Source of the DNA: an uncultured Erysipelotrichaceae bacterium
GTDB lineage: Bacteria; Bacillota_I; Bacilli_A; RFN20; DUOF01
Length of the DNA: 64,000 nt
Assembly: GCA_964442785.1 (NCBI GenBank)
Contig: CAYTZW010000002.1
Location: forward strand, 2,457 to 66,456
Reading direction: 5' to 3'
Below the pieces are notes generated by a model. The model did no database searches. It had not been told where the DNA came from and saw only the letters and a program-made list of their open reading frames with translations. The stretch's first letter is position 1, and each line of letters opens with the position of its first letter. Made by a program: the position numbers and the translations under genes. Shown here one piece after another: positions 38,801 to 39,232 of the stretch.

Positions 38801-39057
38801 AGCCATTATCGGCAACTATAGTAACTGAAACTGGTCCTTTTAAACTAAGACTTTTGGTAACAACATCACCTTTTTCATACATAACGCCATAATATTCATA
38901 TGAATTTCCTTCAGCATCATCTATCATAATGCAAGCATTTTCTTCCAAAACATCATCAACTCCTGCTTTTATGTTTTGACTTGTTACCAAAAACATACCT
39001 AAAAAAGCCATAAATAAGGCTAATAAAGCTACTTTTTCCTTTTTCATATATAACACC
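35832..39057 (-). CDS. Surface protein paralog B (about 1075 aa): signal peptide, Ser/Gly-rich linker, 5-6 repeats of about 115 aa of a HYR/DUF5011-like module, conserved C-terminal anchor module
   Basis: Start refined to MKKEKVALL, which has a GGGGGTG RBS. Repeats read APVWYTEDIxEIxSG...QLTD...YYLWI..GKD.AGN.ATFSGK. The C-terminal module is near-identical to paralog A. Confidence 0.7.
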
Positions 39058-39109
39058 CCCAAGATTATGTCTTTCACACCCAAAAGTACATATCTTTTTC
39101 ACAAAGTCC

Positions 39110-39148
39110 ATTATATATATATATATATATATATATATATAAACGCAA
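39110..39148 (-). promoter_or_regulatory. Promoter homolog of paralog B: TTGCGT, then a 27-nt spacer made of (TA)n, then TATAAT
   Basis: The (TA)15 tract at 39112-39141 lies between conserved -35-like and -10-like hexamers. The flanks are homologous to the paralog A promoter. Confidence 0.5.
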
Positions 39149-39172
39149 CTTTTTAAAATTACAAGAAAGGTT

Positions 39173-39192
39173 TATATATCTTTAGATATATA
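39173..39192. promoter_or_regulatory. Palindrome TATATATC-TTTA-GATATATA, second copy
   Basis: Identical sequence and spacing (24 nt from the -35) as at 34415-34434. Confidence 0.4.
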
Positions 39193-39232
39193 AAAAAGAT
39201 ATTAGCACCTATCCTTTAGTATCACTAATATC
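39186..39232 (-). terminator. Terminator after psd
   Basis: AAGATATTAG stem, 19-nt loop, CTAATATCTT stem, followed on the minus strand by TTTTTTAT. Confidence 0.5.

Follow-up and report, generated by a model that had tools for sequence, protein, structure and literature searches.

How is transcription set in two paralogous genes whose promoters are homologous and differ mainly by the number of units in a TA repeat? This question is raised by a stretch of 64,000 nucleotides (nt) from an uncultured Erysipelotrichaceae bacterium (contig CAYTZW010000002.1 of assembly GCA_964442785.1), which was analysed as a whole and is called the window below. It holds two minus-strand genes, here named A and B, for large proteins that, judging from their sequences and a structure model, look surface-exposed. 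In front of both genes, the spacer between the -35-like and the -10 hexamer is filled by TA units, ten at A and 15 at B. An initial annotation of the locus had proposed that slippage within these repeats turns the genes ON and OFF. The analysis described here points to the same process, that is, slipped-strand phase variation of promoter spacing at A and B, and this is held, with moderate confidence, to be the probable explanation.

Promoter anatomy and the proposed switch

Coordinates follow the plus-strand numbering of the window throughout, and those of the individual features are collected in Table 1. In B, the -35-like hexamer TTGCGT and the -10 hexamer TATAAT, the latter followed by G, are 27 nt apart. 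The (TA)15 microsatellite in this spacer extends into the -10 element, and its final two TA units double as the first four bases of TATAAT. Downstream of the region in which transcription would presumably start lie the GGGGG ribosome-binding site (RBS) and an MKKE start. In all these elements, including the position of the tract, direct reading agrees with the initial annotation.

The A promoter is built from the same elements. The upstream regions of the two genes can be aligned across ~200 nt (MAFFT), and the sole large gap corresponds to the 10 additional TA nucleotides of B; the other indel is a 6-nt insertion in the B leader. Shared blocks include AATTTT(G/A)AAAAGTTGC(A/G)TT and AATCTTGGGGGTGTTAT, and the latter, together with GT(A/G)AAAAAGATATGTAC, is one of the conserved blocks of the B leader in the alignments. 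The proposed homology of the two promoters, with the TA tract as their main difference, is upheld by this alignment. Gene conversion in the recent past was also considered for the two genes and was ruled out, given a nucleotide identity of only 75-76% in their common 5' and 3' blocks.

In both promoters, the length of the spacer equals 2n-3 for n TA units, and therefore the canonical 17 nt is reached by (TA)10 only. Promoters of the sigma-70 type need a spacer of ~16-18 nt. By this general rule, A would be ON, and B would be OFF for a sigma-70-type polymerase. Homologous promoters without a long TA tract, found upstream of two genes of a distant relative (L020), have spacers of 18 nt.

In the mechanism proposed here, each gene lies behind a conserved cassette that runs from a terminator through a 24-nt palindrome, the putative operator, and the -35-like hexamer to the spacer and TATAAT, and then on to a conserved leader, GGGGG and ATG. 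The spacer would have turned, in this lineage, into a pure TA microsatellite. Slipped-strand mispairing during replication would then add or remove TA units and thus alter both the distance and the rotation between the -35 and -10 elements. Such changes would presumably be reversible, and the rate of switching is likewise presumptive. The A and B loci would switch independently and give rise to a population with mixed combinations of surface proteins, which could represent bet-hedging against host or phage pressure, the supposed selective agents.

The initial annotation had gone further in suggesting that A and B are expressed alternately. ON/OFF switching by independent slippage is supported by the TA tract within a homologous spacer, by the 17- and 27-nt distances and by the variable tract length, whereas the alternation is not: independent slippage predicts four ON/OFF combinations and, therefore, no alternation.

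B is probably dependent on the promoter with the TA tract, since a terminator-like hairpin with a U-run lies between its cassette and psd, a gene of the lipid-synthesis operon just upstream. Stronger terminators are predicted by RNA folding at the equivalent position before both L020 genes. With terminators ahead of them, the family genes therefore each look like a transcription unit of their own. Neither a consensus scan nor inspection found an alternative consensus promoter between the tract of B and its ATG. The sequence CATAAT near the RBS of B was rejected as a promoter; it has no -35 element or TG motif, and a transcript starting there would lose the RBS. Moreover, the reading frame of B is uninterrupted, and the persistence of 1071 intact codons in a genome of ~27% GC suggests that B is still in use, so that its silent state would be either reversible or recent.

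Upstream of both promoters lies the same perfect palindrome, TTTATATATCT-AA-AGATATATAAA, within a 26-nt block that is identical between A and B. Its placement 24 nt upstream of the -35-like hexamer, as given in the initial annotation, is correct if the palindrome arms are taken as 9 nt. Its 20-nt core occurs exactly twice in the window, compared with 0.16 occurrences expected in shuffled sequence at up to three mismatches, and is found without a mismatch upstream of both L020 genes; a copy with two mismatches precedes a B orthologue in the relative L144. From this sequence pattern, the palindrome is a probable, still putative, operator of a dimeric regulator. No regulator gene was found adjoining A, B or the related loci. 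A search of a genome collection with the 20-nt sequence returned 17 unrelated chance matches; these included two duplicate Saccharibacteria contigs and one site in a Bacilli metagenome-assembled genome that is directly upstream of a gene.

Other structural explanations were examined. An invertible promoter or shufflon is ruled out; each gene has a single palindrome, located only upstream of the promoter and without a second copy downstream, and none of the adjacent genes that were checked encodes a recombinase. Extrusion of (TA)15 as a cruciform that restores the spacing was rejected from first principles, as no stable partial extrusion removes just 10 base pairs (bp). In the leader, a hairpin is predicted to end just 5' of the GGGGG RBS, and three of its 12 pairs are compensatory in the fold of a four-sequence alignment (B, A, L020 5991-6049 and L020 11433-11491). 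Its single-sequence folds are no stabler than shuffled sequence (z = -0.46 and -0.14), and given this, no RNA element is claimed in the leader.

Tract length among relatives and competing explanations

The alignment of homologous promoters was extended to seven sequences from four organisms or samples, namely A and B of the window, genes 1 and 2 of L020, and one gene each from L144, L142 and L143 (Table 1). TATAAT is invariant among them, and the leader and the palindrome are well conserved where the contigs reach them. The distance from the palindrome to TTGCGT in B equals that to TTGCAT in A, to TTGCAT in L144 and to TTGATT in L020 gene 1. Only the TA tract varies greatly in length. The comparison of TA counts envisaged in the initial annotation, made here across homologous loci and lineages, gives 15, 10, 4, at least 9, at least 8, and ~5 or 0 units, with conserved flanks. 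At the level of sequence, this is the pattern that a mutable spacer repeat should produce.

The relatives differ in the state of the gene itself. L020 carries two tandem family genes, each behind a terminator, the palindrome core, TATAAT and the conserved leader. L144 is 85% identical to the window in nucleotide sequence across the mprF-like, pssA and psd genes, and its B orthologue (L144 2867-4462) contains at least two frameshifts and a single repeat of the APVWYT type described below. The B-like genes of L142 and L143 are identical to each other, and their product is 57% identical to the N-terminus of B; the gene (L142 99-737) stops after 212 amino acids (aa), beside a frame on the opposite strand. 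The B-type gene family thus appears to undergo rapid turnover. Taken together, cassettes with 0 to 15 TA units would illustrate how a fixed promoter spacer evolves into a microsatellite switch and then collapses again. A metagenome scan with the RBS pattern AATCTTGGGG(G)TGTTAT, which is too short for this purpose, gave chance matches and no new cassette among the matches listed.

Long TA tracts are concentrated in this part of the window. Tracts of at least eight units, approximately the length from which a dinucleotide repeat can slip, occur four times, compared with none in 200 first-order Markov simulations, and all four are intergenic and lie within 8 kb. Three of them (those of A, of B and at 41976-42000) share a design in which ten units correspond to a 17-nt spacer. 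The promoter candidate at 41976-42000 has a 13-nt spacer, and two further TA units, ten in all, would extend it to 17 nt. It precedes a lipoprotein-like gene (42025-42690, plus strand), the product of which has a signal peptide with a Cys in LFGGC and short collagen-like G-x-x runs. By its sequence, the candidate would probably be another TA-spacer switch, the third in the window, and its present state resembles OFF. The fourth tract, (AT)9 at 41874-41892, abuts the -35 element of the lipid-operon promoter; it is placed upstream of the core promoter and outside the spacer. This promoter is kept in L144, where the TA tract is interrupted (CATATATACCTATATATG).

A second assembly provides information about tract variability in the strain. 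Two Logan contigs of run SRR10277277 match the window at 23059-31765 and 39124-48079, and the 17,663 nt compared contain no substitution. The sole difference is one TA unit at 41874-41892, where contig SRR10277277_12021 has (AT)10 and the window has (AT)9. One contig (L019) ends at window position 31765, at a hairpin just 3' of the stop codon of A, and the other (L018) ends nine units into the TA tract of B. L018, L142 and L143, the three Logan contigs extending to a long TA tract, all stop 8-9 units inside it. These ends could reflect mixed tract lengths among the reads or the behaviour of the assembler. TA-tract loci are thus flagged as sites of assembly breakage or miscounting, where read-level analysis can reveal heterogeneity in the population.

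Several points weigh against slippage as a switch, and they are best considered with the explanations that they favour. The -35-like hexamers of A and B match TTGACA at only three of six positions, namely TTG, and for this reason neither promoter was listed by the consensus promoter scan. At B, the tract exceeds the optimum by five units, which would amount to a deep-OFF state that takes several slippage steps to leave and is no one-step toggle. The difference between (AT)9 and (AT)10 could stem from PCR or assembly stutter, and both assemblies possibly derive from the same reads.

The collapsed tract and frameshifted gene of the L144 orthologue, moreover, make long-term silencing and decay a real alternative fate. 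B would then be permanently silenced, its promoter out of register, its tract drifted to 15 units and the gene itself a pseudogene in the making. The five-unit distance from the optimum fits this explanation, as do the L144 gene, with only 3 nt between TTGCAT and TATAAT, and the early end of the L142/L143 gene. Unselected frames break fast at 27% GC, however, and the B frame is intact and accompanied by an RBS, a signal peptide and an anchor. Long tracts are also those that slip fastest, and at a neighbouring tract the assemblies are one unit apart. Permanent silencing of B is therefore regarded as unlikely.

Another explanation concerns the palindrome. A regulator bound to it could recruit the polymerase to the perfect -10 element, in which case B would still be transcribed, perhaps at a different level, with the tract serving as a dial rather than a switch. 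Across organisms, no upstream element is better conserved than the palindrome. The -35 hexamers are weak, and in L020 gene 2 the hexamer is missing, with ATTTTT in its position; transcription may therefore rely less on -35 contact than on a palindrome-bound factor. Between A and B, the distance from the palindrome centre to the -10 element differs by exactly 10 bp (57 compared with 67 nt), near one helical turn. A palindrome-bound activator would therefore remain on about the same side of the helix, and B may retain some residual activator-dependent activity. In L144, however, the distance is 43 nt by manual count, which is 14 nt different and out of phase, and the 57-58 nt found in three promoters suggest a constraint on distance beyond phase alone. 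That no regulator gene was found beside the loci also counts against it, and an activator-dependent promoter is considered distinctly unlikely as an alternative to slippage.

Least probable of all is an artefact of short-read assembly or PCR stutter that produced (TA)15 from a different or mixed tract and made the 27-nt state meaningless, because, even with three Logan contigs ending inside a long TA tract and two assemblies one unit apart at 41874-41892, ordinary reads easily span a 30-nt tract, the deposited contig crosses it with unique flanks, the count at A gives exactly the canonical 17 nt, and mixed read lengths would themselves favour hypermutability and hence a switch.

Table 1. Features of the A and B loci and their surroundings in the window, followed by the homologous promoters compared
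Feature	Coordinates	Strand	Details
A coding sequence	31783-34305	-	840 aa
A start ATG	34305	-	protein begins MKKEN
A leader	34306-34361	-	56 nt
A core promoter overall	34362-34390	-	
A -10 hexamer	34362-34367	-	TATAAT, then G
A TA tract	34364-34383		(TA)10; Tandem Repeats Finder: perfect tract
A spacer	34368-34384	-	17 nt
A -35-like hexamer	34385-34390	-	TTGCAT
Palindrome, A copy	34413-34436		24 nt, perfect; exact match to B copy
B coding sequence	35832-39047	-	1071 aa, uninterrupted
B start ATG	39047	-	protein begins MKKEK
B leader	39048-39109	-	62 nt; 3' end CTTGGGGGTGTTATAT
B ribosome-binding site	39056-39060	-	GGGGG
B -10 hexamer	39110-39115	-	TATAAT, then G; direct reading
B TA tract	39112-39141		(TA)15 microsatellite filling the spacer; Tandem Repeats Finder: 15.0 copies, 100% matches; regex scan
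B spacer	39116-39142	-	T(TA)n, 27 nt
B -35-like hexamer	39143-39148	-	TTGCGT; direct sequence reading
Palindrome, B copy	39171-39194		24 nt, perfect; exact match to A copy
Terminator-like hairpin and U-run after psd	39192-39238	-	RNA fold -11.6 kcal/mol, z = -3.5
psd	39233-40081	-	lipid-synthesis operon just upstream of B
pssA-like gene	40083-40761	-	lipid-synthesis operon
mprF-like gene	40776-41819	-	lipid-synthesis operon
Lipid-operon promoter, -10	41844-41849	-	TG-TAGAAT; consensus promoter scan
Lipid-operon promoter, -35	41867-41872	-	TTGATT; 17 nt to the -10; consensus promoter scan
TA tract abutting the lipid-operon -35	41874-41892		(AT)9
Third TA-spacer promoter candidate	41976-42000	+	TTGATA (41976-41981), 13-nt spacer of (AT)8 (41979-41994), TAAAAT (41995-42000)
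Promoter of window A			paralogue; TTGCAT; (TA)10; spacer 17 nt; palindrome centre to -10, 57 nt
Promoter of window B			TTGCGT; (TA)15; spacer 27 nt; palindrome centre to -10, 67 nt
Promoter of L020 gene 1 (JGI 3300029705)			distant relative, 1768 aa; TTGATT; (TA)5 run only; spacer 18 nt; palindrome centre to -10, 58 nt
Promoter of L020 gene 2 (JGI 3300029705)			distant relative, 738 aa; ATTTTT; no TA tract; spacer 18 nt; palindrome centre to -10, 58 nt
Promoter in L144 (SRR22923253)			syntenic B orthologue; TTGCAT; (TA)4; spacer 3 nt; palindrome centre to -10, 43 nt
Promoter in L142 (SRR14160768)			B-like gene; contig begins inside tract; at least 9 TA units
Promoter in L143 (SRR22923249)			B-like gene; contig begins inside tract; at least 8 TA units

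Gene products and genomic neighbourhood

The product of B consists of a signal peptide, a Ser-rich linker, five immunoglobulin-like (Ig-like) repeats of ~125 aa, a conserved C-terminal domain and a C-terminal membrane anchor. Each repeat begins with APVWYT, and A holds one such repeat. Both proteins start with a signal peptide and end with a conserved domain of ~130 aa, a hydrophobic segment and a KKHKK tail, and their last ~180 aa are 53% identical. The signal peptide of B, MKKEKVALLALFMAFLGMFLVTSQNIKAG, contains no Cys and thus no lipobox cysteine. The structure model of a single B repeat is an all-beta sandwich (pLDDT 90.9), for which comparison with the PDB gave only weak, generic Ig-like matches.

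The family to which A and B belong is a very rare family of cell-surface proteins. An exhaustive HMMER search found it in 12 clusters among 1.84 billion representative proteins, and no Pfam family was assigned to A or B. Word-based searches returned two non-self matches for the B query, none for A and none for the C-terminal alignment; the B query missed even paralogue A. Exact look-ups of the proteins A, B, the YhcG fragment described below, P0013 and P0005 gave no match.

The host uses the standard genetic code, as 60 reading frames of the window contain 164 TGG codons and no in-frame TGA, and TGA terminates four of the 60. Genes in the neighbourhood include those for DegV, DUF951 and a SleB-like cell-wall hydrolase domain, which we take to be typical of low-GC Firmicutes. 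Because TGG encodes Trp, TGA is a stop codon and a cell-wall hydrolase domain is encoded, the host is not a mycoplasma. Neither an rRNA nor a tRNA was found in the window, and Rfam, searched at its gathering thresholds, gave no match there, including none to a T-box; a trpS gene is located at 7963-8952 on the minus strand.

The lipid-synthesis operon contains a further simple repeat. A G8 run on the minus strand (40650-40657) frameshifts the pssA-like gene, which encodes a CDP-alcohol phosphatidyltransferase, so that the frame opened by the ATG at 40761 ends at a stop after 38 codons. With one G fewer, the gene encodes 225 aa, and its Pfam profile match covers positions 6-148, compared with 29-148 for the truncated frame. 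The L144 orthologue carries G7, and its 225-aa frame is intact. The G8 run is a candidate for a poly-G translational switch, or else marks a pseudogene, affecting phosphatidylserine and phosphatidylethanolamine synthesis in a genome of 27% GC. Such a frameshift hints at switched synthesis of membrane lipid head groups, which is less usual than the switching of surface proteins.

Between A and B, a gene of the YhcG/DUF1016 family of PDDEXK nucleases is split into a 42-aa N-terminal frame (34528-34656) and a 277-aa frame (34723-35556), both on the plus strand. Relative to the DUF1016_N Pfam profile, the larger frame starts at position 50, and the gene is probably a pseudogene. Elsewhere in the window, four large frames have no or only weak family assignment, namely 2433-5987 on the minus strand and 6619-7911, 10773-12002 and 18415-20025 on the plus strand. 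The last of them has Ig-like, HYR and LapB-repeat matches, and all four may encode further surface proteins; the palindrome cassette was found on none of them.

A wider reading that joins these elements is offered tentatively and, taken as a whole, is doubtful. According to it, a probably walled, low-GC bacterium with the standard code would carry clustered mutational switches within 8 kb. These would comprise at least three promoters in which (TA)10 gives 17 nt (two for Ig-like surface proteins and one for a lipoprotein), the TA tract at the -35 element of the lipid operon and a G8/G7 frameshift switch in pssA, in addition to a palindromic operator on the surface-protein promoters. If this were true, the pssA switch would make phosphatidylserine and phosphatidylethanolamine synthesis phase-variable, and the 10-bp offset of B could hold the operator roughly in helical phase, thereby combining stochastic and regulated control.

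Comparison with known systems

Phase variation through a TA tract in a promoter spacer is established, for example, in Haemophilus influenzae, where (TA)9-11 between the -35 and -10 elements of hifA and hifB sets their spacing and hence the transcription of genes for surface structures (PMC2651432; PMC3899988). In one strain, duplicated hifA loci carry (TA)10 (PMC2651432). The A and B promoters resemble this system in having a TA tract in the promoter spacer of genes for surface products. The hif tract, however, is shared by two divergent promoters that overlap, belongs to a Gram-negative pathogen and varies within about one unit of the optimum, whereas A and B are paralogous genes with one-directional promoters, of which that of B is five units off the optimum.

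Several surface-protein genes with a 5' TA tract, a low-GC genome and a single membrane are features shared with the Vmm and Vmc systems of the Mycoplasma mycoides cluster. In 2006, Wise et al. reportedly described a conserved 5' cassette common to the Vmc genes, in which (TA)n separates the -35 from the -10 element, and a combinatorial expression of these genes. In Mycoplasma mycoides, the ON/OFF switching of Vmm is transcriptional and occurs via dinucleotide indels in a repeat of the promoter spacer (PMC10502178; PMC2628566). In M. capricolum, TA tracts are found 5' of several surface-protein or lipoprotein genes (PMC2996958). Unlike the small lipoproteins Vmm and Vmc, the products of A and B have 840 and 1071 aa, Ig-like repeats and a C-terminal anchor, and B has no lipobox Cys. 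Moreover, in contrast to the mollicute hosts, the genome described here uses TGA as a stop codon, and its cassette includes a conserved 24-nt putative palindromic operator. On the features tested, which are those of the products and the genetic code, A and B do not look like homologues of hifA/B, Vmm/Vmc or the Vlp proteins.

The Vlp system of M. hyorhinis is composed of separately transcribed paralogues with very similar promoters, each with a mutable repeat, which leads to independent ON/OFF switching and combinatorial surfaces (PMC10502178; PMC3899988). Its repeat is a poly(A) homopolymer and its products are lipoproteins, whereas the repeat of A and B is TA. In Neisseria meningitidis, the number of residues in a poly-G tract in the porA spacer alters the geometry of the promoter (PMC3899988). 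TAAA repeats between NadR operators of nadA also shift the spacing between regulator and operator, which results in two-layer control (PMC3899988; PMC2791445). The palindrome of A and B may supply a comparable second layer. Both porA and nadA differ from A and B in the type of repeat and in the organism.

By analogy, the functional kinship of the A and B promoters is closest to Vmm/Vmc and Vlp, followed by hifA/B, and the mechanism itself is already textbook knowledge. What is new is the setting in a barely sampled low-GC lineage, together with a new and very rare family of Ig-like surface proteins. The example is also unusually clean, in that paralogues, an orthologue and distant relatives carry the same cassette. 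The cases of TA-tract spacer switching in the literature searched belong to Haemophilus and the Mycoplasma mycoides cluster, and this example, if confirmed, would widen that range.

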